From Naegleria gruberi (taxonomy: Eukaryota): 64,000 bases of DNA. The position numbers and the translations under genes were made by a program. The stretch's first letter is position 1. The number at the start of each line of letters is the position of its first letter. The notes under the pieces were generated by a model that made no database searches, was not told where the DNA came from, and saw nothing but the letters and a program-made list of their open reading frames with translations. Positions 29,967 to 55,191 of this stretch are shown here, one piece after another. The stretch lies in assembly GCA_000004985.1 (NCBI GenBank), contig GG738871.1; one strand, given 5' to 3'.

Positions 29967-29979
29967 TTTGGCGCCAAAA
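29967..29979. promoter_or_regulatory. Palindromic E2F-like site TTTGGCGCCAAAA, 43 nt upstream of the Aurora kinase ATG.
   Basis: It matches the E2F consensus TTTSSCGC on both strands. It lies in AT-rich intergenic DNA between two genes transcribed in opposite directions. Confidence 0.4.
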
Positions 29980-30021
29980 TAAACCGTTTCACAACATTTA
30001 TAACACAACAAAAAAAAACAA

Positions 30022-31125
30022 ATGCTCACCAACAATGGATTTGCTTCAATGTCTGCTCCTAACATCAAGGCAGCCACAAATAATGGTGCCACGATAATGA
30101 TGAATGATCACAACAACAAGGAAAATCCACGATCACATCCTAATATACAGCATAATAATGGCTTTGCTGTTCCTCCAAAAAAGACAAACTCTACACTCAC
30201 CACAACAGCAAGACCATCATCAGTTAATAGCAAAGCCACAACCTCAAAAGTAAATAATAGTATAGTAGAAAAGGTTAACAACTCAGAGGATGAAGTTGTT
30301 TATCCTGATCATCCTAGAAACGATTGGACTATTAATGATTTTGAAATTGGTAAACCTTTAGGTACCGGAAAGTTTGGTAGAGTTTATTTAGCCAGAGAGA
30401 AGAAATCTAAATTCATTGTTGCTCTCAAATTACTTGATAAGAAACAATTGGAGAAGGAAAAAGTGGCTCACCAACTCAGAAGAGAAATTGAAATTCAATC
30501 ACATTTGAGACATAAGAATATTCTTCGTCTGTATGGCTATTTCTATGATGAAAAGAAAGTTTATCTGATATTGGAATATGCTCCAGGTGGAGAAATGTAT
30601 CACTTCCTTCAGAAATGTACTAGATTTTCAGAAGAACAAACTTCCAAATTCATGTATCAAATGGCCAGAGCTTTGAAATATTGTTCTGCAAAACATGTTA
30701 TCCATCGTGATATCAAACCAGAAAATCTCTTATTGGATGGCAATGGTGAATTGAAGATTGCAGATTTTGGTTGGGCTGTTCATGCTCCAACAAGTAGAAG
30801 AAAGACACTTTGTGGTACATTGGACTATTTACCTCCAGAAATGATTGAGAAGAAAGCTCACAATGCAACTGTAGATTTGTGGTGTATTGGAGTTCTGTGT
30901 TATGAATTTTTAACAGGAAATCCACCATTCTTTGCACAAGATGATAAGTCAACCATGAGAAATATTGTTGCTGTAAGATATTCCTTCCCTGAATACGTAG
31001 GAGATGAGGCAAAAGATTTAGTAAGAAAACTTCTTGTTAAGGAGCCATCCAATCGTATCACACTTGAACAAGTTCTCAAACATCCTTTCATTATTACATA
31101 CAATAAGAATAAGGACGAAATGTAA
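30022..31125 (+). CDS. aurK: Aurora kinase.
   Basis: Motifs [18 protein letters not shown]...[39 protein letters not shown] and the PPF motif; single exon. Confidence 0.9.
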
Positions 31126-31160
31126 ATGATTAAATTAATTTTTTGTATATTTATTTTAAA

Positions 31161-32071
31161 TTAGTTGTGCTTCTTTTCATCAAAAACGTCAATATCGGTA
31201 AGGTGTGGTGCTGTCTTCAACTTCATAAGGGCAACAACAGAGACGACGAGCCAGAAAACGAGGAAAAGACCAATTACAGTAGCAACAGCAATTTCAGAAT
31301 CAATGTACATGGTGTTGAGGGTACCATTGTAAACACTTGTCATATTGTAGACTTCAACAGTAGCATAAACACTGTAATCATGTTGAGCATCACTAGTAGA
31401 AAGAATGTGACGAGAATTCAAACTAGAAACAGTTGGCTTTTGAGCAGAGAAGAGAGCAACATAGTCACCTTCAGTCAACTTGTCCAAATCAGCAACAACG
31501 TTTTGAATGACAGTATCATACTTAGCCAAAAGGTCTCTAACCTTAGCATCACTACGATGAACATCAGCAAAAACGAAAAGATACTTTCCACCCTTCTTAA
31601 GATAATTTTCTGGGGAAGCAAGGAAATCCTTCAAAGCAACACTACCAGCAACATTGCTATCAGAAATAGTGAAAGTAAATTCGGATGGCAAGACTGATTT
31701 AACTTCTTCTTCAGAAATGTTAGGGAATGAAGCACTTGGACCCTTCATGGCCTTCTTCAAGAAAGCAAAAGCGTTATTTTCGTCTGGTTTGATAGAAAAA
31801 GCTCCAGAGTTTTCCAAAAATTCATCAGAACCGAGCTATTATTATTGTTGTTGTTGTTCGTTGAATCCGCAAATTATTATTCACTTACTTGATGATGCAA
31901 AAAGACTGCAACTGTGTTGGTTGAGGATAATGTGTCTTTCAATGAAGTAAATTTCGACATTTTAATGTCTCTCTTTCCGCTCCACACTAAAGCAGGTACA
32001 CTTTCCAAAGCATTGGCAAAAGCGATCACGACAGCCACTAATAAAAGGGCTACAATGGTGCTGGTCTTCAT
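31161..32071 (-). CDS. Type I membrane protein with a signal peptide and a C-terminal TM; possibly like V-ATPase accessory subunit S1 (Ac45). Two exons, 32071..31889 and 31835..31161, in minus-strand order.
   Basis: Exon 1 encodes the signal peptide MKTSTIVALLLVAVVIAFA and ends ...HHQ at a GTAAGT donor. A 53-nt intron joins it to ...LGSDEFLENSGAF.... The C-terminal TM and tail LMKLKTAPHLTD weakly resemble the Ac45 C-terminus. Confidence 0.5.
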
Positions 32072-32466
32072 TTTTTATTTAAATTTTTTATTCATTTTTC
32101 TAAAATATTTTTTGGATAAACAAACGAATATGGACCGGAAGTCTTCATCTCCGGAGTCATGGAAAACAATTAGACAATGCTATTATTATTGTTTAAATGA
32201 GTAGCTTTAATGGAGAAAATAATATCTTCTACAGTTTCTTCTATTAAGTGTTAGATAATAAATTTACAGCACGAATTAAATGATGACGATTGATTGACTA
32301 CTGTGTTGAATACATTTAAAAATTAAATTTTAATTAGGTTTGTATTTGGATAATATTCAAATTATTAATAGTGTGTTGAATCGTCAAGTCATGTTGGTTC
32401 GGATTGAAGAAGAGAAAAAAGCTTATTGCTCCACATTCCATCAACAAGTTTTAATCACATAAAAAA

Positions 32467-35400
32467 ATGCCTTCAATAAATAATGACAAAATGAATTCAT
32501 ACAAGAACTTGAGTGATGAGTCTGATGATTCTGATGACGATTATATTAAAAGGAGAAGAAGGGAAAAATATGCTAGTGATGAAGAGGAAAAACCGATGAG
32601 AGATCATAATAATACTCGTAGGGAGTCTCCAAATAGACAACCAAGACAACAACAAAAACATCATCAACAACCTCCAAATTCTCCATCATCAAATTACCAA
32701 AAGAGAAAAAGAGGTGATGACGATCATGTCGATTCTCCATCAAATGAATCCTCTCAAAAAAAGAAAAAGACTGACGATGATTGGGACTATGAATCAGATC
32801 CAAGACAAAAGATTATTCATCAAATTATTTCAATTTGCGAGTTTAAACCAAGTGATGAATTATACGAAAAATTGAAAGAAGTCTCTACTCGTATTACTAC
32901 AGATCTGGAGGATGATTATCAAACTAATATCACTACTATTTCAGATATCCTCATGCAATGGTATGTTTTTAATTTTATATTTTTACTAAATTGAATAGTG
33001 TTGCTGATTTCCCTGTCAAGTCATCTTTATATGCAATTGTAATTGCTCTTATTAATAACAAATTACCAAAATTTGGAGAGCTTTTGGTTAGTTTAACTGT
33101 GGAACATGTCATTCAAAGCCATAATAACAATGATTGGATTCGTGTTAAATCACTCCTAAGATTTATTTGTGAATTGATGCATTTCAAAGTTGTTGCTGAA
33201 TCTGACATTTATCAGATCTTTGATACATTTATTGACTTGTCGGTCAAGAATGCAGAAACTTTAATTGGAATGAATTACATGTATGTCATATTAGGAGCTC
33301 TTCCTTGGGGTATTGAGGCATTCAAAGAAAATTCTATTTATTTATCCGATATTTCATCCAAACTAACAAAATACTTTGAAGTATACAATCAAAACGATTT
33401 TGGATTATATCAAGTTTACAAAGGTCAAAAAGACTGCTTGGGAGCAATGTGGGATCAATTCAAGTATTTCCTGTCTAACCAAACAGAAACAAAGGTAATC
33501 AAGAGTTTATTGAGAGCTCATATAAATGTTACTGAATCAGATTTGAGCGATGGAAGAGCACACAAGCTTGAAATACCTGCTGGTTCTTTAAATGATGTAG
33601 CAACTAAGGACACTGATTTTTCTAAGGGTTATTTATTTAAATCAAGACTAGGACTTTATGAATCTATGATACCAAACTCACTTCATTTACTTTCACCAAT
33701 TGATAGATTAGTAGTGGAGGAGTATATATCAGATTTTCTTTATTTCTTTAATGGATCTCACAGAGATTGTGTTAATCGTTTATATATATGGGCTGGAGAT
33801 CTTGCTACTTTGGCTTTCAAGAAGGATACCTCAGTTTCCTCTCCAAAGAGCATGGAAGAAAAAGAACTTGCTATTTTAAACGATTTAGATCCAAGTGGTG
33901 AATATTTCCAACATATGGCTATGGATATTATTCTAGGTGCTATGTGTTGTCTTCCTGCTCCACCTGTTAAAATTCATTTCTACAATGTAGTTGTAATAGG
34001 ATTGTGCTTGCAGAAATGTACTAAGGATAATTTTTCAAGAGAAATTGTCAAAAAGTACATTAATTATGTATTTGAAAATATTGATGATTTTGATGATGAA
34101 TGTTGTATGCAAAGATTTACATCTTTAATGTCCTATTATTTGAGTCAATTCGATTGTAAATGGTCTTGGGATAAGTGGTCATTCATTTTCAATGATCCAG
34201 ATTCATCAACCAATAAGAGAAGGGAGCAATTTATAAGATTGGTACTCCAAAAAACCTTGCATGTGACTTACATGAATAAGGTCAAAAGATCTATTAAAGG
34301 ATCTTCAAACTTGACAGAAGATAAGTTTGATGATGATTCTAGATATAATGAGGACGAAGATTTGACTGATGTACCTTTTGCTAAATTCTTACCATACTCA
34401 CCAGATGCTACATTTAAGTATACTCCAGATAGTCCTTATCACGCTGACGCTACTAAATTACTTGATGCAATCAAGGGTAAGAAGAAGGATAACACAGAAG
34501 TTATAGAGCTCTTCTCTACTTTAGACTGTAAAGATGATAAGATACTTTTACTGGATATTTTCATTAGTTGTATTTTATCTAATCAAAAGAATCTTACTGA
34601 ATTCAGTGATTTACTGACATACTATAAGGAAGCTATTTCACAACTCATGGATTTTGATGTTTTACCTCAAAGAGTGAATATTATTAGATGTCTTTGGAGG
34701 TATTGGCACAAGTCTCCACAAAGAATTATTCTTTTAATGAAGAAGTTACTTCTCCAACATGACATCATTTCCTGTCAGAGCTTGGCAAATTATTTGTTTA
34801 CCGATAACGAACTATTGTTTTCATATGGTTATTCATGGGATATTCTTAAATCATGTTTGGACACTCAAATAACTAGAGCTTTAAGAGCTTTCGAATATGG
34901 TGATGATTCCACAAGCACAAGTGATACAGTACCAAAGATAAAGAAGGATAATCAACCATCAGATCATTTTGATCTCGATAAGGCTGTTAAAGGTTTGGAT
35001 TCCATGTTTTTTAAAATGCTACTTGGAGAAATACGTGAAACTGTCTACATTATTACTAGGCTCTTGACAGAAAAACTTCTCACCTATGATAATGTCAAAA
35101 GTTGGGAATTTAATCACTTGTACGGATTATTGAAAGAAGTTGCAAGACTTTACCAAGTCTATGTTAAGGATTTACAGGGTTATGTGGAGTCAATTCTTTC
35201 AGAATCAAGCAATACCATTGTCAAGGAACACTTGCTTTCACTCTTCAAGGGTTTGAACTTTTTCAAACATACTAGTGTGTTTGTTCCAGCTGGTTCAAAG
35301 GCAACCACCCCAAGATATGAGAGAAGATTTGATCCAATTCTTCAAACCAAGAATTATACCATATTGGATACTAGACATTCCATTCATGATTTATTAATCC

Positions 35401-35558
35401 AAGAAATTCAACGAGTGGAAAATGAAATTCCTGTAATTATTACCAAAGACCACCCATTGTGTTCACTTCTCCTTCCTCCACTTTCTGACACAAAGAAACC
35501 AGAAACTGTTGATGAGGAAATGAAAAATAACCAAACAACTAGTGGAGAGCAGCAATAA
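32467..35558 (+). CDS. ncbp1: Nuclear cap-binding protein subunit 1 (CBP80/NCBP1). Two exons: 32467..32960 and 32999..35558.
   Basis: MIF4G-type regions. FTSLMSYYLSQFDCKWSWDKWSFIFNDPDS matches human [31 protein letters not shown]. A 38-nt GTATGT..AG intron joins ...ILMQ-C-VADFPV. Confidence 0.8.
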
Positions 35559-35559
35559 A

Positions 35560-35570
35560 TTTGGCGCCAT
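35560..35570. promoter_or_regulatory. E2F-like site TTTGGCGCCAT, 32 nt upstream of the HAUS5-like ATG.
   Basis: Same GGCGCC core as the other sites in this window; AT-rich context. Confidence 0.35.
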
Positions 35571-35601
35571 ATTTTTAAATCAAAAAATTCAAATAAAAAA
35601 A

Positions 35602-37446
35602 ATGCAACAAAACCTTACACAACCTGGAAAACTCTCGCAACTCATTGAAGAATGGAGCAAGAGGGAATTACACCTAACCGAAATACCACAAACATTTTTT
35701 ATAAGAGAAGTGTGTAGAGGAAATATGATTCCGATATGGAAATTTCTGATCACATATGTGCATGATCCGAAAACTGTGGACCATGTTAAAAAGAATTTGA
35801 TGTTGTAAGTAATTGGTGTGATTTCTTATCATACATTGGGAATTAGGAGTGGAAAAAAGGTTCAAAAATCATTGGATGTCGAAAGAAAAAAGAGACAACA
35901 ACTTGTCAAACAAATTGAAGAAGTTAAATCAAGGATAAACGAAATTAAAGCTAAAGGAATACCAAACACTGAATTTGAAATTATGGAACTGAGGAAAAAA
36001 ATCAAAGTACTTCAATCATCTGTACAGAATCAAAAGAAACAGGAAGACCAAACTACAAAAGAAAATTTCTTAGTTAGAGCTTTTGAAGAAAAGTGTAAAT
36101 TTGACACTTCCGTGTTGAGTGAATATAGCCAGAAATTGGCCATATCGTATGACACAATGAAAAGAATTAACAATGTAAATATTAGCGAGGTTAGAAAAAT
36201 AATAGAAGAATTTGTAAATACTTGTGTTAAAACTTTGAGTAAGGAATTGAATATAGATATCAGTGAGATTGATTTTGCTTCCCTAAAAATCAAAGAACTG
36301 CTTACTCCACAGATTTTGGAACATGCTCAAGAAATACTCAAAGAGCAGTCGATATCTATTCGCCACTCGTTTGAGAATTCTCACACTCTTAAGGATGCTG
36401 ACAAGGAGAGGATTCAGCAAATTGAAAATGCATTGGAGGAGGAAAGAAGAAGACATATCACCAGATTTTCAGAAACTCAATCGTATGTTATCAAGACAGT
36501 ACACTATTTTAATTACATTACTAGTTTGTCTAATATCTCTCAAGACCTTAAGATAAAATTTGAAAGGCTAAACGAGGAAATAAGAGAAACAGGACTCACC
36601 ATCTTTGGTGAGAAATCAATTTATGTTGAGGAAATGAGAAAAAATGAAATTGAACTTTCTCAATTCAGAGCAGTACGAGCTGTACTAGAGGATTATATTG
36701 CTTGCCTTACAGAAGAAAGGGAAAAAAGAAAAATTGTAAGACAAAGCCTTCCTGTCAAACAACAAGAAATCAATAGTCTGAGACAAAAACGAATTCAAAA
36801 ATATGACAAGGTTGAGACACTAATTCAAGAAACCAATACATTGGTGAATATTTTGCCTCAGAAACAAGAACAAGTTCATATGTTTTTGCAAGACAGAATA
36901 CCACCAATTACAGAACCATTCGCTAATGTTTTGGAGACATTTGGCAATATTGTTGAAACTGAGTACAATACTGTTTCTAAAATACCATTGGACTATATCA
37001 TACACACAGATTATGGAGAGAAACGATTATTAAGGAAAGATCTTTCGATATTTGCCAGAGAAGAGCTAGGAGGGAAACTGAAAAAAATACTAGACATTTT
37101 AGAATTTCCTGAACATAAGGCGATTGACCATGTTCTTACTCATGCAACAGATATGAAACAAGAGTTGACTGTTCTAGAAAATGAAAGAGAGAATTTGAAA
37201 GAACTAATTGAACATATGCATGCAGTAGAGCAAGGAGTTGATTCATCTGCCATTCAACAGGTTATTGAGGAAAATCATGAACTAGAAAATGCACAGAACG
37301 AACATTGGACTGGTTTGATTGACAGAACAAAAATGGAGATTGAAAATTTCAAAGAGGAAGCAGAGAATGTACACAATTTATCTGAAGTGCTTTTACACAA
37401 TCCAGTTATCCAGAAAATTGACTGGAATTCATTATTAAACAATTAG
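35602..37446 (+). CDS. HAUS5-like augmin complex subunit. Two exons: 35602..35804 and 35847..37446.
   Basis: N-terminus IREVCRGNMIPIWKFLITYVHDPKTVDHVKKNLML resembles human HAUS5 [35 protein letters not shown]. The rest is a long coiled coil. A 42-nt GTAAGT..AG intron. Confidence 0.55.
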
Positions 37447-38561
37447 TTGGTTTTTGATTTACCAAAAAACTTCAGTAATTTGAGTAAGATAACAGTTGCA
37501 ATTACTAATGGAAGTGTGAATACTGAAATAATGGTTTTGATAGTACTATCAGTGTTATCTTCGACTGTTGTATTATCCAATTGATTTAAAAAGTCTGTAA
37601 CAGAACTTTCAGTTGGTGTAGAAACAACAGTAGTTGTTGGCTTTCTTATTGGTAATGATGGTAGGGCTCTTGTAGTTGGAGATGGTTTTCTGGCCTCAGT
37701 AGAGACTGAAGTTGTAAGAGTTGGTGAAATTTCAATTTCAGGGGTTCCAGGTGTAAGTTTCAGTTTTCCATCACCACTTGGAGAGGTGGCTTCTTCTTGG
37801 ATTATACGAAGATCTTCTTCGAATTGTTCAAGCAATTTTTGTTCTTCTTGTACTTGTTTTTCCATTTCTTTCATTTGTTGTTTGTTGAAAAGAGCCTTTT
37901 CGTGGAGTTGTGTAAGAGAACACAAAATTAATTTCTTATTCTTTTGAAGGAAAACATCTTCAAATGTGAAAAGCAAATCTACTGGAAATCCATCAACTTT
38001 TCTCAATCCTGCCAAAAACAAAGCCATATTATTCTTGGCATTAAAAAGATAATTACTATTGAAGGCCTTATCACTACTGAGTGAGAATAATTGTTGATCA
38101 AATTGATGGACCTTTTCATAGGCAATATATGTTGGGAAATAGTGTTGCAATAATTTACATAAAACAAGTCCATTTTCTAAATTGTAATAGAAATTACGAG
38201 AGCTTTCCTTCTTGGAAGCAATATCCGGTAATAATGAAGGTGATGATTTTACATCCAAACCACTGTCCTTTTTAGCAAATTTAATTCCTAAACTATTTTC
38301 GATCCAAGTTTGTAATTGTGTTTCAACTTCATGAAATTTATCTTCCTTGATATCACGTAAAGGACTAATATTCATAATAAATGTTTGCGAAAGGGAATCT
38401 GATCTTGTATGAATTGGAGTCATTGGAGAAGAAATATTTGTTAGTAATTTATTCTTTGGACGTAATGGAGTTGGGGTATTGCTATTACTGTCAACATAAT
38501 CAAAATCATCATCCAAAGAAAAGTTTTCATTTCCTCCGAACGTAACGCCTTGTGATGACAT
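37443..38561 (-). CDS. Calponin-homology-like domain protein with a C-terminal TM (tail-anchored).
   Basis: WIENSLGIKFAKKD...NGLVLCKLLQHYFP...FNAKNNMALFLAGLRKV resembles a CH domain. Coiled coil follows. C-terminal hydrophobic VFTLPLVIATVILLKLL. Confidence 0.45.
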   Translation of the reverse strand: MSSQGVTFGGNENFSLDDDFDYVDSNSNTPTPLRPKNKLLTNISSPMTPIHTRSDSLSQTFIMNISPLRDIKEDKFHEVETQLQTWIENSLGIKFAKKDSGLDVKSSPSLLPDIASKKESSRNFYYNLENGLVLCKLLQHYFPTYIAYEKVHQFDQQLFSLSSDKAFNSNYLFNAKNNMALFLAGLRKVDGFPVDLLFTFEDVFLQKNKKLILCSLTQLHEKALFNKQQMKEMEKQVQEEQKLLEQFEEDLRIIQEEATSPSGDGKLKLTPGTPEIEISPTLTTSVSTEARKPSPTTRALPSLPIRKPTTTVVSTPTESSVTDFLNQLDNTTVEDNTDSTIKTIISVFTLPLVIATVILLKLLKFFGKSKTN

Positions 38562-38590
38562 TTTTTAAAGATTTTAAAATCAAATTTATT

Positions 38591-38603
38591 TTTGGCGCCA
38601 TTT
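38591..38603. promoter_or_regulatory. E2F-like site TTTGGCGCCATTT, in the shared upstream region of two genes transcribed in opposite directions, 30 nt from the minus-gene ATG.
   Basis: GGCGCC core in an AT-rich intergenic region. Confidence 0.35.
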
Positions 38604-38740: not shown

Positions 38741-41700
38741 ATGCAAGCACTTCTACCACTGAGTGAAGCTCTTGGAATTTTGCTCAACACAAAGTTTAAA
38801 CAAGTCACCAATATAAATTCCGATAAACATTCATTGTTTCATGCTTATAGTTCATGGTCCTATTTTGTAAAATCTAAATTGATTTCTGGTGGAGAGAGTA
38901 CTGATTATGAAACAATTTTAAATGACAAACAATACGGAATTATTTTCATCTTGTTGGATAATTTAGTTGAAAAATCGTCAACTCTCAAATATCAACATAG
39001 TTTTCAATTATTGTGTGATTGTTTTTATAATGATGAATCTATTAATGATTTCGTATTTGGATTATTTATTCATATTTTAAAAAAGAAACCTGAAGATGAA
39101 TCTGCTACAAGAATTCAACAATATAAATATTCTATATGTAGATTTATTACAGAGTTCATATTGGAAAAAGAGTTCGAAAAAGAGGATAAACCTAAGTTAT
39201 TAATTGATAGTAATGAAACCATTCTTGATAGATTTGGGGATGACAAGTTGTCTAAATTGATGGAATATCTTTGGATTATTACTCGATACGAAAGTGTAAC
39301 GATGGATGGTAGAAGATTTGCTACAATTTTAACATCATCCTCAAGTGACCTTTTATTAATTTTGGGATATTTACTTTCACAAAATCAGAATGAAATCCTT
39401 TTCAAGCAATTTGAAACATATTTTAAATTAACTAGTGAGTTATTGCATTGGTTTGAAAATCAGAGAGATTTATACACAACCTCTCTCAAATATCTTCACA
39501 GTAGACTGAAAGAGATTTCATCTATTGTGTCAATAGTTAATAATTTAGAGAGAAGTTCCCGAGAGGATGATCAAAATAGGGCAAAAGATGGGCGAAACAT
39601 GTCCCTCAGATCATTTTCCTCTTTTTTAATAATTTATGGATTTTTAATGGTGGAAAATCGTGAACATTTTGAGCATTACATCAAATTTACAACAAAGATT
39701 GAGGGTTCTAGTTCTAAGCATGACTATTTATTTGATTATCTGATGGCTATATTACTGGAGCTTGAAAAAACTGAAAATGAGACAGAAATACTCCACAATT
39801 TAGTATACCTATCAGCAATACTAGGTAAAATGAAAAAGAAAGAACTAAAGAAATATTTGGGAATGAAGGTAAAGGGAGAAAAGGAAACCAAAACACTCTA
39901 TGAAATAATTATACATATTACTAATAACAAACTGGTAAGTATCCATTCTCTTTATTAAACCATTAATACTTGGAATAGTTTAAAATCAATTCGGAAAATA
40001 TTGCGAGAATAACAATTTATTTATATAAGGAAATGGTAAATTATACTGGAGAAACCAATGACAGAGGAGCATTTATTGATATGGTAATGGAAATGCTTGA
40101 AAGTGATGATATTGTTTCTAAGGCAGTCATACTTTTTGTTTCAGATATTATTAGTACTGATAAGAGTCAAATATATTCTATTTTCAAACTAGTTGAATCT
40201 GACAATGAAAAGGCAAAGAAAAATGGACTTGTAATTCTTTCTGAAATATTCAACTCTACCGATATTGATGAAGAGCTTTCTCATACAGTCACTGATTATT
40301 TAATCAATAAGCTTTCATCAGATGATTTATCTATTAGATCGTGTACTGCAACAGTATTTTCGAAATTGGATTTCAAATATATTGCAAACAGAATTATTCC
40401 ACTATATGTCTCAAAGAATGAGAAAGAGAGATCTGCAGCCCATGAAATTTTGACTAAACTAATGGAGAGCAACACTGAAAATCCAAATATTTTCATGAAT
40501 GTTGTAAACTCTATCAAAGATTTACCAATTTATGAGGATCCTAATCCAGATCAAACCAGAAAAAACATTGCAGAACGAGTTATGACATTTATTCCAAAGT
40601 ACTTTGCCCATCTTTCTCCAAATTCTTCAAGACTTTTGGTAGAAGAAATAATCACCACATTTTTTGAATCTAACACCAATTCTCTCTTAGTGTTTATGAT
40701 GAATAAGATTTTGAGTTTTACACTCTCTGTGGAAGCACCTCAAAAGATTCTTTCAAGTGAAGATGAATACATACTGAACAATAAGAAAGATACCTTGTTG
40801 GGCGTTCTTGCAAAAGTGTTGGAAAGGATAAACTGTCCAAAAATAGAGGAAGAAACCATCTTTGATATGCTAGCACCACTACTTGTACTAAAGACTTTAC
40901 CCGTTTCAATATTCTACTACATTCATCCTAATGCAGAGCATGATAAAATATTCACAGAAGTTTTGCTGATAATGATTAGAAATGTGATAGATTTGAGTAA
41001 ACCAGAAGAGGTAAGAAGAGTCTCTGCTGAAGTAGCTTCAAAACTACCACCCAGAATTACAATTTCCTCATTTGTTGCAAGGTTTTCCAACTATTTACAA
41101 AAGAACTCATTGACCAAGGCTAAGTCGGTTTTATTTTGCATTTGTCAAACTATAGCTCTATACGAGGAGGATCCATACTTGTATTCTTTTCTTACTGGCG
41201 AATCTCTCTTAATTCAATCCATTAAGAATGCCTGGAATTTACAATCCAACGATCAAGAATTATCAAAGATACATCAAGGATGTATGGATTGTATGGTTAT
41301 GATTATCAAGTATATGCTGAACTACAGTCACTCTGATGGTAACTTTATTTCAGATAATATTCTCAAACCATTGTCAAATAATTCAGAAAGCATGATGGTT
41401 AGAGTATCCATTTCCAATATCATAACAAAGTGCACCAATGTATTCCCTCTGAAACATTTGCTTTCACTTTCTAGTATGGTTATACCAATTTATTCTAAAG
41501 TTTTACTTTTAAAGAGAGAACCAAATGCTGAAACCTCCCTCTTCTACTGCTCAAGTCTTCAAGCATTGATGAATTTGGTTTTCAAAATCAAGACTGCTGT
41601 TCATCCATATTCCAAATCATTGTTAGAAATTATTTCCAAGTGCTTGTCAGAGTCTGATCCTAACATTCGTCACTTCTCCCTAAAGCTCCTTAGTTCACTA

Positions 41701-41847
41701 CTCTTTGCAAGAGATGATGTACTAGTGGATCATCAAACAATCTTTGAATTTGAAATTTTAAAGAAGGTTAAGGGAATGGCCTCTATTGAATCAAGTTTGG
41801 AAGTTCAAAAGCTTGCCAATGAATTGTGTAAAATAATGGGACTATGA
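38741..41847 (+). CDS. HEAT/ARM-repeat protein, about 1000 aa. Two exons, 38741..39934 and 40030..41847; family not assigned.
   Basis: Two adjacent same-strand ORFs are joined by a GTAAGT donor at 39935 and a tataag acceptor at 40029, in frame. Helical-repeat composition throughout. The ORF-track start at 38690 is TTG; the first ATG is at 38741. The two ORFs could instead be separate genes. Confidence 0.45.
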
Positions 41848-41873: not shown

Positions 41874-41885
41874 TTTCCCGCCAAA
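41874..41885. promoter_or_regulatory. E2F-like site TTTCCCGCCAAA, 30 nt upstream of the katanin ATG.
   Basis: Matches TTTSSCGC in an AT-rich leader. Confidence 0.35.
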
Positions 41886-41913: not shown

Positions 41914-43626
41914 ATGTCAGACTCACTCCTCAAAATCAAATTGCAAAACAAGGCAAAGGAACAACAGGAGAAGGCCATTCAAGATAGAAAGAAGGGAATA
42001 TTGGTCTTGATGATAAGACACTTATTTGATAATGGGTTGGTATCACTCTTATTGAAATTGTTAATCATTCTTTAAAGGTATCTTGACACAGCTGAGAGAA
42101 TGCAATCGGAAACAGGAATATCACTCAAAAGGTTTGATGCTGCTGATAATATGGATCTCAATAATATTATGATTGTATGTTTATTTTTGTATAACTGAGT
42201 TCATAATTGTTTAAGGAATTTGAAGAATACTATCAAATGAAATTTATGAAGAAACCAAAACTTTTCCGAAAACTACAATCTGATGCTGATGATACTCCAT
42301 CAAATATACCACCAAGTTCTAAAACAGCTCCATCCTCCTCTGCAACAGCAAAAACATCAAGAGCTGCAAGTGGAAGCTCCTCTTCTTCGGATCAAAAGGA
42401 CAAACCATCAGTAACTTCAAAAACAGCACCATCATCATCTACAAGAAAAACACCTACAACTATTACAGGAGCAAAAACATCAGCTAAGGATAATAAGGAC
42501 ACAAAAGAAGATAATGAGAAACAAAATGAAGGATTTGATATTTCAGGAAAAAAATTGGATACTACAAAACAACAACAACAAAAACAAGAAAAGAAGGAAA
42601 TTACAACCGAGGAAAATGAAGAAGACTATTATGAGGAAAGGTTATTGAAACCTCTACCTGAAAATTTATTCTTTGGTGATATGAGAGAACTTGCAGAAAT
42701 GATTAGAAGAGAAATCATTGTCACTAATCCAATGGTACATTGGGATGATATTTCAGGATTACATTATGCCAAACAAATGGTTAAGGAAGCAGTTGTCATG
42801 CCACTTAAATATCCTCAATTCTTCACAGGATTGATAACACCTTGGAAAGGAGCTTTGTTATTTGGGCCACCAGGTACTGGTAAGGTAAGTTTTTGAGAAT
42901 TGAGTTTAATGTTTTGAAATAATTATTCAGACAATGTTGGCTAAAGCTGTAGCAACCGAGTGTAAAACCACCTTCTTCAATATATCTGCATCCTCAATTG
43001 TGTCAAAATGGAGAGGTGACAGTGAAAAATTAGTCAGAGTACTTTTCCAACTTGCTAGACATCATGCACCTTCTACAATTTTTTTGGACGAATTGGACTC
43101 TATTATGAGTCAAAGAGTTTCAGCCACAGAACATGAAGGTTCGAGAAGAATGAAAACAGAATTATTGATTCAAATGGATGGTCTGTCGAAGAGTAATGAC
43201 CTTGTATTTGTGTTGGCTGCTAGTAACCTTCCTTGGGATTTAGATCAAGCTGTTTTGAGAAGATTGGAAAAGAAAATCCTTGTAGGCTTGCCAGATAAGG
43301 ATTCAAGAAATTCAATATTCAAAAATTGCCTTACTCCTGAAAGAGCCAATTTGACCGAGACTCAATACCAAGATTTAGCCGAGAAAACAGAAGGATATTC
43401 CGGATCTGATATCACACTTGCTTGCAAGGAAAGTGCCATGATTCCTGTAAGAAAAATTTTCAGTCAACTAGAAAAGTTGGATGCAAAAGCAACGAATGCA
43501 GCAGATAAGGTAGTTTTAGATAAGGTAGAAATGAAAGATATCGAATATTCTCTCAATATTATCAAACCCAGCGGAAACCAATATGAAGAGCAATATAATA
43601 AATGGCAACAAAAATTTGGAATTTAA
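41914..43626 (+). CDS. Katanin p60 ATPase, LisH plus AAA (KATNAL2-like). Four exons: 41914..42035, 42078..42174, 42216..42884, 42931..43626.
   Basis: LisH motif [27 protein letters not shown] spans a 42-nt intron. AAA domain [26 protein letters not shown] is near-identical to KATNA1. Introns 42-46 nt, phase consistent. Confidence 0.85.
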
Positions 43627-43627
43627 T

Positions 43628-45981: not shown

Positions 45982-46041
45982 TAGTTTCAACTTGTGGCCA
46001 CAATTCAATAATATTTGAACATCACAAAATATCTTTAAAAA

Positions 46042-46791
46042 ATGGCCACACTCTTTAGACTTCAAGACGATCACATCAACGATCTTGTTTTTATTAATAA
46101 ATTAACTCCGGAATGTAGGTGTAGATTCATCAGATCACAATAATTTTATTATATAATAATATAAAGCATTGGAGGATTTATGTAGAGTTTCTATTGAATT
46201 TATTACTAAAGGATCTTTGAAGAAATCAATTCAACAAACAGCAGGTATGGATAATTTGGATGTACATAATAATAATAATAAATGTGGAATTAAATAGCAA
46301 ATCTTTCATTGGAAAAGGATGATGTTGAGAAGGGAGTAAAAAGTTTATCATATTTATTTTCCGATTGTGCTAAAGCAAATTTGGATGGTAACAAATTCCA
46401 ATTAACAATCTTTGATATCCCTTCACTTTCAGATCAATCTGCTGGAATTTTACTTAATTATTATGAACAAAATTTCCAAAATATTCGTACCTTGTTCTCT
46501 AAAGCAAGTAGTACTGAATCATGTTATGGACTCAGTACAATGCCACAATATAAAGATTTGGAATGGAGATTTGAAGTGGAATGTGACAGAAGAAGTGTTA
46601 GACAATTGGTAGAACCATACTTTACATTGAAATTAATTACATCAACGACAAGTGGAGACGAAAAGAAAAATCAAGCTCAATACTTTAACTGTTCACTCCA
46701 TGAATTGAAGCATATTCACGATGTTTTGGGAGAAGCTCTCAAGGAAATGAAATCTTCTCACACCAGAAGAATCAAATATTATATCAAATAA
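46042..46791 (+). CDS. COMM-domain protein. Three exons: 46042..46114, 46167..46244, 46298..46791.
   Basis: C-terminal LEWRFEV...YFTLKL...LHELKHIHDVL resembles a COMM domain. Short introns with GTAGGT and GTATGG donors preserve phase. Confidence 0.55.
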
Positions 46792-46812
46792 ACCAAATCT
46801 TAAAAATGTATT

Positions 46813-49800: not shown

Positions 49801-50076
49801 GTCCTCTGTTGTTGGTGATTTTTTAATCATCCAAGCTGAATTTTGAGATTCAATCTGCTGCTTTGTGTCGCAACCTGTGTTGTTTGTAAATATTCTCGCA
49901 GGCTCAAGTTTGCGAGTTTGGCTGAATTTGTTATTGTTAACGGAGTATTCAAAACAGCAACAACAATAAAAAGAAGAAGAGAAATATTGGTGTGGGTTAG
50001 TTGGGATGGATTCAAATTGAAATGTAAACCTACACAAAGATCTTCTCTGCTTCCGTGCTATCAGCAAATACTGCAT
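46813..50076 (-). CDS. Giant N/Q/S-rich protein, 1087 aa, with a C-terminal IPT/TIG domain and a central beta-rich domain; putative DNA-binding or transcription regulator.
   Basis: C-terminus IHPNRGPLNGQQEVTILGNF...VRVMFG...IVCTVPERIVPGLVRIEVV is IPT/TIG-like. Long poly-N and poly-Q linkers. The first ~80 aa are atypical (CCCC), so the true start may be an internal Met. Confidence 0.55.
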   Translation of the reverse strand: MQYLLIARKQRRSLCRFTFQFESIPTNPHQYFSSSFYCCCCFEYSVNNNKFSQTRKLEPARIFTNNTGCDTKQQIESQNSAWMIKKSPTTEDKLSKHPFNNTTPPPVHNVNSWKLQQHQFSKHCGSKTSRHSKRFHDSLLQYSENTQQQFVPSVIAASSSVQTTTTNLPPPQSSQLLFDKRRKSFATMTNNNNQNKIKTHHNHHAAKIKSQSTSTYNTIDTFPTSYIYSILDKLSPSPDFKSYIEIKWITTITSHEIQVELFRPRVLNVDESEDEATVAIDDDGLVSSSRKFIKSKSKHQKFLQTNISRLVTTTKKQENNNQTIDFKDEESNSGSSSGEEDSTTDVSSSDSLSSYHEKSMSASSGYRNIHSQSPATNSESDDCSSSSGQESQSKSSSNEQSHSSDMKKTLSENGQATSKDMLLNSSTTANNDEEIHQPVEQQQQSMSNESSQKKKKDFLVQGGVMRVPTALTIFSKLFNSMKSKISLNKLVFTPFISPSGKSNHSTTEDYQGGSSGNGTSSSSERLSSDGGNSSNSSGDEREDVSSEEDQNEDAYPMPPVNVLTVSGSGESSGNSQNGGGSSNSSERRNNSTSNNGGGNSSNNNNNGSREASSNSMNNSSSGSEEFSGGSDSDDENISFATVQIIDGSQKEKNGIKYWVQRNVITIQVISSFVFDTCTVYCTKEGNTETKVMETLSFVDSFTKLNPSKVAEVLKNAKCTLSIDEDDVYEAQFRKKLPFTSGRPETQKLIWISAEFSMSNKIIKKVNSSKFYVCSRPQDLRAIGNNPVATSTTNVSSSSQSSSAMPNTNNMNNHHETSSVNQQQQHSFSARTKVANVQSPSMNSMTPFQNDGYRHSSNNSQDNSSSNNIHNSTTNRPNLQNYNNNNSSNSGSMIHHHYSNSNGSISNNSNNQQTMFPSNQYPTHHHPFTSPNTSPIYHHHPQQTTSNNNSYQSSPQQSNISLQLTSIHPNRGPLNGQQEVTILGNFDSIKKEGNSVRVMFGLQDSPNIAQVLSDRIVCTVPERIVPGLVRIEVVTKSIPQLSSFGDVFYTYYRPEHNQQQQENENQASDNEGFSLNRPNKSHIYHPYK

Positions 50077-50473
50077 GGTAGGTTACCATGGCTTTATCGC
50101 AAATTTTTTTATGTTCTCCCCTTACGAGATTTTATTAATTACCAACAAATTTGCATAATAAATAGATCAAGCAAACATTCTCAAAATTTGAGATCAATCC
50201 CGAGCGAGCTGCGCTACTTGAAGTGGTACCAAGCTTGGTTTGTCCAAGCCACAAACTACCAAAAACATCTTAGACACTCTCCCAATCACAAAAAACAAAA
50301 TGATGACTATTCTTTCAGAAAATGAATCATAGTTTTTAATTTTCCTTATGTATTGAAATAAGGATGTATTATCTGAACATAATTCGGAACAAATAATTTT
50401 CTCTGCTAGGGGCAATACAAAATAACTGTTAGTTTTGAAAGGTGGAATTTACGAAAATCCATTGTACAAAAAA

Positions 50474-52070
50474 ATGCTTATTGGAACGGAAGCAGATTCA
50501 TCATTGGACCATCACCAACATAAAATGTTGCTTGATGATATGGTGCTAGTTTCATCACCATCATCAAACAACGCGGAAGAAGAGCACGAAGAAGAACAAT
50601 TAAAATTATTATCATCACCAAGTTCTAATGAAAGTTTAATAACAATGGTCTCATCGTCAATGGATGATACTACATCAAATCTAGTGAAGCCGACACCCAA
50701 AATCATGGAATCAAGAATTTACTTTCATCAAAATTCACAATTATTATTTCTAAATTTTGAAGATTTTTACTTGGAAACACAAGAGGACGTTGATGTTGTG
50801 ATTAAATTTATTGAATTAACATTTACAAATTATTTAGCGGATGAGGAGTTACAAAGAAAGATACAGTCCAATAGTATAAATCGAAGAAATAGTTTCATAA
50901 AGGAAAAACCAAATAATTCAAAGAAAAAGACAAATATTGATGTTTATATTTGTTATGATAGATTTCATTGCCAACTTGATTTACTAAAATACTATTCCGA
51001 AAAAGTAGCCTATCTAGAGGCTAATTATTATAGATCAGTGAAGAGATTCACAACGGAATCACTAGAGGATAAATTATTGAAAAAGTTTGAAAGTGTTTTG
51101 GAACAACAAGAACATGTCGATGAACCAATAATTCAAAATTTTGAAATGTTGAATGGACGATACATTATCCAATCAGAACATTTAATAGCTAGAGGTACTT
51201 TTGGAAGGTAAGTAATACATCACCAAATATGCATTCCGAACTAAAATTATTTAGGGTATTCCTTGGACAGGATAAATTAACAGGAGATTTGGTAGCAGTA
51301 AAGGAATTAAAAAGAAAAAACATTGACAGTGTTGAAGGTTTGAAAGAACTTATTGATAAGGAATTGAAAATTTGTAAATTATTATCACAATCCCTAAAGG
51401 ATGGTGAATCACATATTGGAAAAAAGTATATTTGTAAAATATATGATGTAATTGATACAGAACCCTTCCATTATATTGTAATGGAGTATTTAGCTAATGG
51501 ATCACTTGAGAATCCTCTTGAGGAAAGAGAAACATTCCCACCCGAAGTTGCAAAGAAATATATCAAACAGTTATCCTATGCACTTGATTATATTCATAGT
51601 ACACTAAATATATGCCATCGTGATATTCAATTGGCTAATTTATGTTTGGATGCACATGGAAATATCAAGCTTGTAGATTTTGGATTGAGGTAAGTTCAAA
51701 TTATTGAAAAATAATTATTGACTTTCAAAGTGATTTCTTTACCAAAGAGGCAACAACTCATAATTCATTTTGTGGAAATTATGCATCTCCTGAAATGATT
51801 TTAGCGACTAAATATATAGGATACGAGGGAGATTGTTATGGAATGGGACTTTTATTGTATAAATTATTATCAGGATTTTTCCCATTTCGTTCAAGTGTAG
51901 ATAAGATTGTAGAACAATACTACATTCCATTGGATGAATTGGAAAGGGAAGGTACATTGAATGAATCCAGTATATCCTTAATTAAAGGTCTTTTAGAAAA
52001 AGATCCTTGTAAAAGATTAACAACAAAAGATGTCATTAATCATGAATGGTTACAAGATGTTGAAGTTTAA
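50474..52070 (+). CDS. Ser/Thr protein kinase (CAMK-like) with a ~240-aa N-terminal region. Three exons: 50474..51207, 51255..51689, 51731..52070.
   Basis: GTFGR-VFLG...VAVKEL, HRDIQLANL and DFGL-S...CGNYASPEM join across GTAAGT introns of 47 and 41 nt. The ORF-track start at 50435 is TTG. Confidence 0.8.
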
Positions 52071-52088
52071 ATTAAATTATTGTGATAT

Positions 52089-52619
52089 TTACAAAAAGGA
52101 TCTACCCCTATTATGAAAATGTTCCACAGTTATTGGTTGCTTATCAGCTTGAATTTCTCTTCTTCTCGTTTCTTCCCTTTGTTGTTGTAATTTCATATTT
52201 TCCACCATTAAGGACTTCATATATTCTCTCCTCTTTTCATTACTAGTATTGGCATGAATATATCTATCTCTAGGTGTCTCCCTTGGTTTAATTTCAGAGA
52301 GTGGAGCTGTCTTTGGTCTCGTGTCCACAACATTCGGAATTTGTTTTATGAATGTCTTTTCCTTTACTACATTCTCGTGTTCTTTTCTTCCTTTTAATTC
52401 CAAATGACGATCATAATCTTGTTTCCTTTGTTTTTGAAGTTGTAACTGCTCCTCCCTAGTGCCAGCAATGGCTTGTCTTCTCGATTCCTCTATTTGCTTC
52501 ATCTTGGTTCGTTTTGCCTCAATGTTCTGAATTTCACGTTGATAGTCCTTCTCAACAGTTTGGCAATTTGTGATTGAGCACTTTCTCGGAACGAACAATC
52601 TACTTCTAGTTGTCTCCAT
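52089..52619 (-). CDS. Hypothetical charged coiled-coil protein, 176 aa.
   Basis: Single ORF with a real ATG, K/E/R/Q-rich. Confidence 0.4.
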   Translation of the reverse strand: METTRSRLFVPRKCSITNCQTVEKDYQREIQNIEAKRTKMKQIEESRRQAIAGTREEQLQLQKQRKQDYDRHLELKGRKEHENVVKEKTFIKQIPNVVDTRPKTAPLSEIKPRETPRDRYIHANTSNEKRREYMKSLMVENMKLQQQREETRRREIQADKQPITVEHFHNRGRSFL

Positions 52620-53104
52620 TCTTTTAAGTGTAATAGTATTACAGGTTCTGTACAGTGTGTGGTGGTGTTGTTTTGGAGATTGCTTTTAATTTACACAAGT
52701 CATTAACAAATGTGTGTAAAGCAAATATAGATTTGATGGTAAAGACTTTTTTTTTGGTATTGAGAAGTTAATTGGTGAGGAATATTCTGTAAACTGAATT
52801 ATACAGCTTTGTGGTATAGGTATTGATTGTGAAAGTTTTATTGCTCTTAGGAGTGCAAGAGATGATCAACCATGAAGTGCTGTCCTTCAACTTCTATTCG
52901 AGTATGAAATTAACATATAAAAATGATTTTCGAATCCAACGAAGAGAATAAATGTAGAGATATCACCTCAAAGTGAAAGTGCTTTATTAAGGCTTTTGAG
53001 TCGTTAATAGGAATATTAAAATAATTCAATAAATTATTAAGAGATATTAATTTCAGTATTACGTATTTGTTTTTGATTTCTTATAACCGTTTTTACAGTT
53101 TGTA

Positions 53105-53117
53105 TTTGGCGCCAAAA
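53105..53117. promoter_or_regulatory. E2F-like palindrome TTTGGCGCCAAAA, 34 nt upstream of the 53151 ATG.
   Basis: Same motif as the 29967 site. Confidence 0.35.
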
Positions 53118-53150
53118 TTTATAAAAATAAATGAATCAAACATTAAATAA

Positions 53151-54152
53151 ATGTATGCAAAACGAATGCTTACTCGCTCACCCTCATCATCAAATGTTAA
53201 TAGTACAAATGAGTATATTGAATACCAGGATGGATCAATAGCCGTCATGAATCACAATGAAACTGTAGAGGAAATTAATAACCGAATAAAAGAAGAAAAA
53301 AGAAGGAAGGAAGAAGAACGATTAAAAAAGCTGAGAATTGAAACAGCAAAAAGGAGGAAACGACAAGAACAAATTGATGCGGAATTAAAAGAAAAGAAGG
53401 AAAATGAAATTGAAAAAGCTTTACAGGACAGGAAAAAACAAATAGAGGCTTCGAAATTAAGGAAAAACAGCAAAACACCCGAATGTATAACAACAACAAA
53501 TGGAGGTAAAAGCATCAGGCCTACACCTGCTGTGGCTGATATAACGAAAAAACAAATTAGACATTTGAACATTTTAGAATCTCTTGATTTACAAGGAATT
53601 ACATCGAGTACTGACATGTTTCTTGTTGCTGAGAAGATGTCGAAAAGATCGAGTGTCAGAGAATCGGAGGCAGCTCATGCCATAAAAATGATTGAGATTA
53701 CTTCGGCTAGATCACCAAATCCAACAAAAGAAATTCCCTTAGAATCGCCTTCCAACAAGACAAAGAGAGTGAGGATACAAATAGTGGAGGAAGAGAAACG
53801 AAAGACCTCTCCTCGAAATAATGATCTGAAACTTCCTCAAATTAAAACCCGACCAACTGAAGCAGTTGCCGAAAAGAAGATTGAGAAAAAGAAAAAGCTT
53901 GTGGCACCACATACAGGTGTCTCGATAGATATAGAAAAAATAGAGAAGGATATTGCATTAATTGATAAGGCACTTTTAGAAAAATATCAAAGTTTAAGGA
54001 ATATTGATAATAACGTACTGAAACGAGTGAATACAAGCGACAGGTCTGATAGAAAGGACTCTACACCATCACCCACACAAAATAATCCAAAGAAAATTTC
54101 CAAACCAAAGCGAGCTAAACCTGTTTTATCAACAAGGCAACGAAAATTTTGA
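53151..54152 (+). CDS. Lys/Glu-rich hypothetical protein, 333 aa.
   Basis: Long charged ORF, probably a nuclear coiled-coil protein. Confidence 0.45.
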   Translation: MYAKRMLTRSPSSSNVNSTNEYIEYQDGSIAVMNHNETVEEINNRIKEEKRRKEEERLKKLRIETAKRRKRQEQIDAELKEKKENEIEKALQDRKKQIEASKLRKNSKTPECITTTNGGKSIRPTPAVADITKKQIRHLNILESLDLQGITSSTDMFLVAEKMSKRSSVRESEAAHAIKMIEITSARSPNPTKEIPLESPSNKTKRVRIQIVEEEKRKTSPRNNDLKLPQIKTRPTEAVAEKKIEKKKKLVAPHTGVSIDIEKIEKDIALIDKALLEKYQSLRNIDNNVLKRVNTSDRSDRKDSTPSPTQNNPKKISKPKRAKPVLSTRQRKF

Positions 54153-54196
54153 TAAATTAGTACAATTAATTTATTTCCTAGTTGAATTGTTTAGAT

Positions 54197-55153
54197 TTAG
54201 TTTGATTCTTCAATTGAGATTTCTTCACTCTTGTCTTCAGACTTAGTTTCTTCTGGCTTTTCTTCTTCAGACTTGGTTTCCTCACCTTCTTCTGATGGGG
54301 TAGTATTTTCTTGAACTGGTTCCTCCTCATCATCAAAGATACCACCTTCTTTTGGTTCTTCTTCTTCAGTTGGAGTTTCTTCAACAATCACTGATTGAGC
54401 CTTAGCTTTTCTTGGACTAAAAACATTTACAACACCTTGGAATAAATTCTTAAAACCATATTGAGCTTTTTCAAGTAAACTAATATTGAGTTGATCTGGT
54501 GTATAACCTCTCTTAAGGTTTCTTTCTATGTACACATCTCTATCCTTTACAATTCTCATAATGAGATCACTAGTGGAAACACCTTCAGTTCTCTTAATAG
54601 TTAAAAATCTGTGCATTTCCTTCAATCCAGCATAAACATCATTACCATTTTCATCAACGGAAAGATCTTCACCATGTGAAACGAAATCAATGTTATGTTT
54701 CAAGACAAAATCACCATCAACAACCCATGGAGCTTCCTTCACAACTTCATCAACATATCTACAGTGGGAAACACCTTCATATCTTTCGTTTTCTGTCATG
54801 ACAGTCTTTCCTTTAATTCTCCAAGTGTCAGCATCTGAACAAACACCAACAATTAAATGTGTATTTGGGAACAAATTTTTAGCTTGTTGAAGGGATCTCA
54901 TGTGACCAAAGTGGAAAAGATCATAAATACCATCGGCATATACTCTAACAGGTCTATCGAGAGGCACTCTAACTAAATTTCCTTGCATCATTCTAAATTC
55001 ATATCTTCCATCTTCTCCTTCTACAACATCACCTTCCTTGTGAGAAGAATAGTCAATTTCAAATCCCTGTTTAACCTTCTTTTGTTGTGGTTCAACTGTG
55101 TTGTTACCGTTTTGTTCTTCTGATGACGTAACCTCTTCAATGTTTCTTTTCAT
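54197..55153 (-). CDS. pcyt1: Choline-phosphate cytidylyltransferase (CCT/PCYT1).
   Basis: RVYADGIYDLFHFGHMRSLQQAK (HxGH), RYVDEVV and an acidic C-terminal tail. Confidence 0.85.
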   Translation of the reverse strand: MKRNIEEVTSSEEQNGNNTVEPQQKKVKQGFEIDYSSHKEGDVVEGEDGRYEFRMMQGNLVRVPLDRPVRVYADGIYDLFHFGHMRSLQQAKNLFPNTHLIVGVCSDADTWRIKGKTVMTENERYEGVSHCRYVDEVVKEAPWVVDGDFVLKHNIDFVSHGEDLSVDENGNDVYAGLKEMHRFLTIKRTEGVSTSDLIMRIVKDRDVYIERNLKRGYTPDQLNISLLEKAQYGFKNLFQGVVNVFSPRKAKAQSVIVEETPTEEEEPKEGGIFDDEEEPVQENTTPSEEGEETKSEEEKPEETKSEDKSEEISIEESN

Positions 55154-55178
55154 TTTTTTTCTTCTGAAAAGCCAACGG

Positions 55179-55191
55179 AAGGCGCCAAAAG
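55179..55191. promoter_or_regulatory. E2F-like site, reading TTTTGGCGCCTT on the gene strand, about 27 nt upstream of the CCT ATG.
   Basis: GGCGCC core flanked by A/T runs. Confidence 0.3.

Follow-up and report, generated by a model that had tools for sequence, protein, structure and literature searches.

Putative E2F-type binding sites recur just upstream of start codons in a gene-dense stretch of the Naegleria gruberi genome

Why does one GC-rich palindrome return again and again in the short, AT-rich spacers between genes of Naegleria gruberi, each time a few dozen nucleotides (nt) ahead of a start codon? The question is raised by a 64,000-nt stretch of contig GG738871.1 (GenBank assembly GCA_000004985.1)—the whole of which is called the window below—where an earlier note had pointed out a recurrent GGCGCC hexamer flanked by T and A runs and had read it as the site of the transcription factor pair E2F/DP. 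The analysis described here arrives at the same family: the recurrent elements TTTGGCGCCAAA and TTTCCCGCCAAA are probably E2F-family binding sites in promoter-proximal position, a putative assignment made from sequence. Consensus, factors, position, and partial conservation all support the E2F/DP reading, but the predominant core, GGCGCC, is not the one that the heterodimer prefers.

The recurrence itself is readily established. GGCGCC starts at positions 13200, 19132, 29970, 35563, 38594, 53108, and 55181, i.e., seven times where 0.30 copies are expected, and none of 100 shuffles of the window reached this count. An approximate gene map based on open reading frames (ORFs) was used to separate coding from non-coding DNA. 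By this map the window is gene-dense, with ~32 genes in 64 kb, 52 kb of coding DNA, and a non-coding share of ~18% (~11.8 kb). Within the non-coding part, GGCGCC was observed five times versus 0.057 expected, a number attained in none of 2000 dinucleotide-preserving shuffles, which confirms the five intergenic places reported earlier. The coding part holds two copies versus 0.34 expected; the hexamer is ~90-fold enriched in non-coding DNA and coding DNA is without enrichment. When the pattern is widened to the E2F core SSCGCS, ten hexamers are found in the window, seven of them non-coding (GGCGCC at 29970, 35563, 38594, 53108, and 55181; CCCGCC at 41877 and 57333) versus 0.62 expected, while the three coding copies versus 2.6 expected represent no real excess. 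Longer words behave alike: TTTGGCGCC gives eight strand-matches in the window with 0.03 expected, and TTTSSCGC nine with 0.98 expected, among them TTTCCCGC at 41874. All-G/C hexamers occupy 15 positions, with seven taken up by GGCGCC and three by CCCGCC or GGCGGG. GGCGCC is the commonest of them despite a strong depletion of CpG (observed/expected 0.41 for the whole window) and is therefore the outstanding G/C-rich word of the window. Expected counts and shuffles together led to the rejection of chance or composition as the cause of the motif count. The background is less extreme than the ~80% AT formerly claimed for intergenic DNA, since non-coding DNA as a whole is ~71% AT (28.7% GC); GC content across the window is 30-37%.

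The seven non-coding sites are listed below, the position of each being that of the first hexamer base relative to the ATG in gene orientation.

29967-29978, plus strand: Aurora kinase site, a perfect palindromic TTTGGCGCCAAA; hexamer at -52 from ATG 30022
35560-35571, plus strand: HAUS5 site, TTTGGCGCCATA; hexamer at -40 from ATG 35603
38591-38602, minus strand: site of the calponin-homology (CH) gene, TTTGGCGCCATT on the plus strand and AATGGCGCCAAA on the gene strand; hexamer at -38 from ATG 38561
41874-41885, plus strand: site of the KATNAL2-like gene, TTTCCCGCCAAA; hexamer at -38 from ATG 41915
53105-53116, plus strand: unk333 site, a perfect TTTGGCGCCAAA; hexamer at -43 from ATG 53151
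55178-55190, minus strand: site of the choline-phosphate cytidylyltransferase-like (CCT) gene, TTTTGGCGCCTTC on the gene strand followed by CCGTT; hexamer at -33 from ATG 55153
57330-57341, plus strand: site of the DnaJC11-like gene, TCTCCCGCCAAT; hexamer at -33 from ATG 57366

Every one of the seven SSCGCS hexamers thus listed begins between -33 and -52 from an ATG, and the proximity to start codons described earlier is confirmed. Stretches from -30 to -55 at the 32 starts make up 7% of the non-coding DNA and contain all seven sites, which corresponds to a P value of ~1e-8, post hoc in that this interval was picked after seeing the data. The sites also resemble one another beyond the core. 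Read in gene orientation, a 5′ TTT is present at five of seven and a 3′ AAA at four of seven, far above the expectation from composition, and each site has at least a 5′ TTT or a 3′ AA(A); the CCT site, for instance, reads TTTGGCGCCTTC on the gene strand when the anatomy of the seven is compared. Perfect 12-mers occur three times in 64 kb (two of TTTGGCGCCAAA, one of TTTCCCGCCAAA), and the remaining four sites depart from the consensus by one to three mismatches, confined to the flanks. A G/C hexamer with a central CpG, bordered by a T-tract on one side and an A-tract on the other, matches the E2F consensus, and both core variants with their T/A flanks, GGCGCC and CCCGCC, fall within E2F consensus space. 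The TTTCCCGCCAAA at 41874, described before as a related site ahead of katanin, is indeed present, counts among both the TTTSSCGC and the SSCGCS matches, and constitutes the asymmetric variant of the E2F/DP and E2F7/8 type. Together with this site, the five GGCGCC sites listed in the earlier note hold; the seventh promoter site, TCTCCCGCCAAT at 57330, had been overlooked. Directly upstream of the latter lies GGGGAAA (TTTCCCC on the other strand; 57316-57341 including the site), which could be a second, degenerate half-site in the DnaJC11-like promoter.

The arrangement of the sites relative to neighboring genes is varied. Four of the seven (29967, 38591, 53105, and 57330) lie in divergent intergenic regions, the last of which is shared with a P450-reductase-like gene. 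The site at 38591 had been placed correctly near an ATG, but its hexamer at 38594 serves the minus-strand CH gene (-38) and not the plus-strand gene, whose likely ATG is at 38741, as in the orthologue. At the other extreme, the HAUS5 site starts 2 nt past the stop codon of a CBP80-like gene within a spacer of 44 bp (35556-35603), so that the HAUS5 promoter and the 3′ end of the CBP80-like gene must overlap.

Which genes carry the element, and which do not? Those downstream of the seven sites, together with one motif-free gene that is relevant below, are the following.

30022-31125, plus strand: Aurora kinase gene with a Pkinase domain, downstream of the 29967 site
35603-37446, plus strand: HAUS5 (augmin subunit 5) gene; Pfam HAUS5, 6.9e-21; exons 35603-35806 and 35818-37446
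37443-38561, minus strand: gene for a CH-domain tail-anchored protein (Pfam CH), start codon set by alignment with the orthologue on contig L003
41915-43626, plus strand: KATNAL2-like AAA ATPase gene, multi-exon, with exon 1 kept in L003
ATG 53151, plus strand: unk333, encoding a K/E-rich protein of 333 amino acids with no Pfam match
54197-55153, minus strand: CCT gene; Pfam CTP_transf_like, 1.9e-25
ATG 57366, plus strand: DnaJC11-like gene with a DnaJC11 C-terminal domain
8472-10451, minus strand: CHFR-like checkpoint gene with FHA, RING, zf-CRD, and PBZ domains

The Aurora ORF matches an N. gruberi UniRef Aurora kinase with 100% identity across 93% of its length, the next-best matches coming from N. 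fowleri, N. lovaniensis, and Willaertia, which marks the window as nuclear DNA of N. gruberi. HAUS5 contains an intron with the donor GTAAGT. The label 'katanin p60' did not survive: by similarity the gene (42207-43626) is closest to animal and plant KATNAL2 proteins, with no N. fowleri or N. lovaniensis orthologue among the top matches. Gene starts were fixed with the help of an A-run (AAAAAAATG) that precedes most start codons. As to function, the presence of mitotic regulators is clear for Aurora and HAUS5 but not obvious for CCT, the DnaJC11-like gene, and the two unknown genes. The motif is found at about one promoter in five (~7/32). By comparison, at ~25 of the 32 promoters no SSCGCS is found within 90 nt of the ATG, among them those of eIF5, GHMP kinase, the CHFR-like gene, myosin I, carboxypeptidase, a 3′-5′ exonuclease-domain gene, SPT2, CBP80, sideroflexin, P450 reductase, and formin. 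This makes the element gene-selective as opposed to a universal core-promoter feature, and the notion of a generic core-promoter element at all genes was rejected on this count.

Proteins that could read such sites are on record. The existence of E2F, DP, and RB homologues, proposed earlier as a check, is borne out by the N. gruberi E2F, DP, DEL, and RB sequences given in the supplement of Medina et al. 2016 (eLife, PMC4862756), on which their attribution to N. gruberi rests. In an alignment, the recognition helix of NgruE2F is identical to that of human E2F4 (E2F4-DP2-DNA structure, PDB 1CF7) and NgruDP carries RRRVYDALNVL; a conserved DNA specificity is therefore to be expected. A Pfam scan returned the expected domains: E2F_TDP plus E2F_CC-MB for NgruE2F, E2F_TDP plus DP for NgruDP, two E2F_TDP stretches for NgruDEL, and RB_A (6e-45) plus RB_B (2e-24) for NgruRB. 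The C-terminus of NgruE2F reads EGVSDLFL, which we take to resemble a pocket-protein-binding motif. According to Morgunova et al. 2015, E2F homodimers select GGCGCC in systematic evolution of ligands by exponential enrichment (SELEX), and E2F/DP as well as E2F7/8 prefer TTGGCGGGAA. Both cores accepted by E2F occur in the window, GGCGCC in the majority (5/7) and CCCGCC at the other two sites. No description of E2F sites, promoter motifs, or DREAM in Naegleria was found in the literature.

Has the element been kept in relatives? Orthologous loci were taken from N. lovaniensis (L001, L006), Willaertia magna (L002, L014), and Naegleria-like metagenome or SRA contigs (L003-L005, L012). Intergenic DNA cannot be aligned between these relatives, so that a retained motif is informative. 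For three of four tested genes—Aurora, HAUS5, and KATNAL2, though not the CH gene—a GC core is found at the same promoter position. The N. lovaniensis locus L001 contains only two SSCGCS hexamers in 21 kb, and these lie in the Aurora promoter (GCCGCCAAT at -44, with the core GCCGCC) and in the HAUS5 promoter (CTTGGCGCCTTT at -32 of the ATG). The KATNAL2 orthologue on L003 has GTTCCCGCCACC at -38, its promoter core being kept there as TTCCCGCC, and the sole SSCGCS hexamer in the 3.2 kb of L012 is a GGCGCC upstream of Aurora. Aurora paralogues are similarly equipped: two copies of CCCGCC (-142 and -127) precede the N. lovaniensis paralogue, and ACCGCC plus TTCCCGC the one of Willaertia.

Anchoring the Aurora promoters on a shared CCGTT brought a second element to light. 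In N. gruberi this Myb/MSA-like CCGTT (reverse complement AACGG) occupies 29984-29988 on the plus strand, exactly 8 nt downstream of the Aurora hexamer. The same arrangement, a hexamer followed by eight nucleotides and CCGTT, was found at five Aurora orthologue loci and at the Willaertia paralogue, within otherwise unalignable sequence:

N. gruberi Aurora, 29970-29988: GGCGCC-aaaataaa-CCGTT
L012 Aurora, 1316-1334: GGCGCC-tgttttaa-CCGTT
N. lovaniensis Aurora, L001 9957-9975: GCCGCC-aatgatga-CCGTT
L005 Aurora, ~523-541: ACCGCC-cataaaaa-CCGTT
Willaertia Aurora orthologue, L002 ~9962-9980: ACCGCT-tcaaaaaa-CCGTT
Willaertia Aurora paralogue, L014 upstream of 10001: ACCGCC-aagtttga-CCGTT

Myb sites have AACGG as their core, as does the mitosis-specific activator (MSA) element of plants. 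A conserved AACGG core in a mitotic-gene promoter is thus seen for Aurora, and the constant geometry points to composite promoters, at least in the case of the Aurora genes. Elsewhere in the window, CCGTT is separated from the CCT hexamer by 2 nt, and another copy (53087) precedes the unk333 hexamer by 16 nt. The word also occurs without a GC hexamer at 21229, 13 nt before ATG 21242, and at 59716, 46 nt before the formin ATG 59762. The CHR (the homology region of cell cycle genes) of animals was searched for as well: neither TTYGAA nor TTCRAA lies 4 nt from any hexamer of the window sites, and a tandem of the animal type, in which a cell cycle-dependent element (CDE) and a CHR require this 4-nt spacing, was rejected. 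TTCAAA is found nearer the ATG in four promoters, at variable spacing and in A-rich context. A word of the form AAATTCAAA(A), which looks like a reversed CHR (TTCAAA), stands just before the ATG in several motif-bearing promoters (HAUS5 at 35585-35602 of the window and at L001 18250-18264; KATNAL2 at L003 ~5270-5285; Willaertia Aurora at L002 ~9985-10000); it may be due to chance in A-rich leaders.

Several observations sit uneasily with the E2F reading. The palindromic GGCGCC is not what the human E2F/DP heterodimer prefers, either in SELEX or in chromatin immunoprecipitation. No more than two or three of the seven motif genes have a clear mitotic role, the window contains no S-phase gene, the promoter of the CHFR-like checkpoint gene has no E2F-type hexamer, and ~20% of promoters is a high figure for a purely cell-cycle regulon. 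In the relatives, the Aurora hexamer degenerates to GCCGCC, ACCGCC (L005), and ACCGCT (Willaertia), all poor E2F matches, and the GGCGCC of L012 is devoid of T/A flanks; what has been conserved could thus be the CGCC-type site for some other factor. At the CH-gene promoter, L003 shows CCTCGCTTCGGACGG in place of the N. gruberi GGCGCC, and the best available relative of CCT, a 53%-identical metagenomic protein gene (L007), is without the motif, which says little about close relatives. The L003 word (~1965-1985, minus strand) forms a cluster of three CpGs and may represent another element occupying that position. In a rival reading, E2F would bind the element but the element would be broad and largely constitutive, and not a periodic switch under RB control. 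Such a role has been proposed in Cryptosporidium parvum for an E2F-like motif (TGGCGCCA / TTTGGCGGGAA, DTTGSCGCCH, TTTGGCGGGAAV): TGGCGCCA is the most over-represented upstream motif there and precedes genes of 163 of 200 expression clusters (corresponding to 2,379 genes), with no particular expression pattern. The frequency of ~7/32 promoters and the mixed list of genes, with CCT, the DnaJC11-like gene, and unknown genes on it, favor such a broad element, and a range as narrow as -33 to -52 is typical of a core-promoter-like one. However, N. gruberi has an RB with A and B pocket domains, which C. parvum does not, and the motif is carried by HAUS5 and by Aurora, including both Aurora paralogues in relatives. 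Another augmin subunit, HAUS6, was, like TPX2, reported as up-regulated in N. gruberi mitosis in a synchrony study. Broad constitutive use of the element is accordingly rather unlikely, though it is the most serious competitor.

It is considerably less probable that the (G/C)CGCC core is bound by a different, non-E2F factor, alongside a Myb-type factor on CCGTT, and that the likeness to E2F sites is partly coincidental and helped by AT-rich flanks. What speaks for it is that only CGCC (CGCT in Willaertia) is invariant among the Aurora orthologues, always 8 nt from CCGTT, in addition to the flankless site of L012. The three perfect 12-mers in 64 kb argue to the contrary, as does a pattern of 5′ T-runs and 3′ A-runs far beyond what composition would produce; moreover, the two core types are precisely those accepted by E2F proteins, in an organism in which the factors are present with unchanged recognition helices. 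Hardly credible, finally, is an origin of the sites in chance, in a compositional artefact, or in a 3′-end or terminator signal of the upstream genes. Two sites do follow stop codons closely, 35560 by 2 nt in the case of the CBP80-like gene and 41874 by 27 nt after the stop at 41847. Yet the shuffles never reached the observed count, the position of the sites is tied to the ATG downstream, and they are partly kept in orthologous promoters. A 3′-end signal is excluded by the four sites in divergent intergenic regions, which have no 3′ end nearby, and was rejected.

If the sites are indeed bound by E2F-family proteins, the binder would be an E2F-DP heterodimer or a two-domain protein of the DEL/E2F7-like type, acting from the proximal promoter ~35-50 nt upstream of the ATG of about one fifth of genes. 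Given this distance, the sites are probably close to the transcription start. Through such binding, transcription of Aurora kinase, HAUS5, and others would be tied to proliferation or to the state of the cell cycle. Presumably, the conserved C-terminal motif of E2F would serve as the docking place of the RB homologue, which would repress transcription and be freed by phosphorylation through a cyclin-dependent kinase; that RB probably supplies repression is suggested by its presence together with the conserved motif. At the Aurora promoter, the E2F-type site would work with the Myb/MSA-like AACGG at its fixed 8-nt distance. Actual binding, the direction of its effect, RB dependence, and periodic expression are what we infer, as distinct from what we observe. 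Going further, it is conceivable, although on balance doubtful, that heterolobosean mitotic promoters in general carry a fixed-geometry composite of E2F-type and Myb/MSA AACGG elements, read by a DREAM-like assembly of RB, E2F/DP, R1R2R3-Myb, and possibly MuvB. In that event, the two-element G2/M logic of plants and animals would be an inheritance from the last eukaryotic common ancestor, and the symmetric GGCGCC would reflect an E2F homodimer or DEL mode unlike the heterodimer preference of animals.

The Naegleria element shares important features with E2F/DP sites of animals and plants (TTTSSCGC; in symmetric form the DHFR-type TTTCGCGCCAAA), namely the 12-bp match, the 6-bp G/C core with a central CpG between T- and A-tracts, the promoter-proximal position, targets that include Aurora kinase, and E2F and DP recognition helices that are unchanged. 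Despite this likeness, several differences exist. Naegleria is a heterolobosean (Discoba) and its sites are predicted from sequence. Human E2F/DP prefers GGCGGGAA both in vivo and in SELEX, whereas symmetric GGCGCC dominates in Naegleria (5/7). The position is unusually tight in Naegleria (-33 to -52) compared with animal and plant E2F sites, in intergenic regions of down to 44 bp. C. parvum resembles Naegleria in having an AT-rich, compact protist genome with the same two variants, the palindromic one predominating, and a motif that is strongly over-represented in the short upstream regions and is carried by a large share of the genes. In contrast, C. parvum belongs to an unrelated lineage (Alveolata) and is without pRB, and N. 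gruberi has RB and carries the motif at a minority of promoters, with mitotic genes among them.

Composite promoters control G2/M genes, those of Aurora kinases among them, both in plants, through MSA/MYB3R with E2F-RBR complexes of the DREAM type, and in animals, through CDE/CHR. The Naegleria Aurora promoter likewise has two elements, a GC-rich, E2F/CDE-like one and a second, short one a small and constant distance away, but the partner is AACGG at 8 nt and not, as in the animal tandem, a CHR (TTYGAA) at 4 nt. A single RB orthologue of Dictyostelium, RblA, reportedly represses S-phase and mitotic genes. The RblA/E2F system offers a precedent for E2F-type sites at mitotic genes in another free-living amoeba, albeit one that belongs to Amoebozoa.

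On the basis of protein phylogenies, E2F, DP, and RB have been attributed to the last eukaryotic common ancestor, and cis-regulatory evidence for E2F is scarce outside animals, plants, Dictyostelium, and apicomplexans. A textbook E2F element in Naegleria would extend such evidence for the ancestral RB-E2F system to Discoba and would support the conservation of the DNA-recognition code as well as of the proteins. It would also provide a candidate regulator for the mitosis-specific transcription programme of Naegleria, for which synchrony RNA-seq has been published without promoter analysis. Since transgenesis is difficult in Naegleria, a short defined element ~45-60 bp upstream of the ATG could furthermore aid the design of expression constructs.

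The two GGCGCC copies outside clear promoters had both been ascribed to coding sequence, at slightly wrong positions (13199 and 19128). This is correct for 19132, whereas 13200 lies at the uncertain 5′ end of an ORF, where it forms part of an ambiguous pair:

13167-13208, plus strand: GGCGGG at 13167 and ATGGGCGCCAAA at 13197-13208, 5′ end of ORF 13071-14321

Both hexamers (13167 and 13200) fall within the first 130 nt of this ORF, whose start is uncertain; it encodes a low-complexity protein and has three candidate ATGs, none with the usual A-run. An in-frame ATG (13197) is directly followed by GGCGCC, and GGCGGG precedes it by 30 nt; with this ATG as the true start, GGCGGG would be at -30. 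The copy at 19132 was rejected as a promoter site: it encodes the G-A of 'KNGADST' in an ankyrin-repeat protein, as part of the 'NGAD' motif, in the last exon of the gene (19065-19172, minus strand). This gene comprises ORF 19173-19790 on the minus strand, a short intron, and the further exon that ends near 19065; the PA-domain gene downstream starts at 18998.

SSCGCS hexamers are scarce in the Willaertia magna locus L014 (21.5% GC), too, with only two in 21 kb (17398-17403 and 236-241): one is an intergenic TTTTGGCGCCATTTT situated 100-210 nt ahead of the following gene, the other a CCCGCC in sense orientation at -47 of an ADH-like gene. In the N. gruberi window as a whole, TpA is also low (0.63) and the E2F-type hexamers make up a noticeable share of the G/C-rich CpGs, a pattern that, together with the depletion of CpG, could be related to cytosine methylation in N. 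gruberi.

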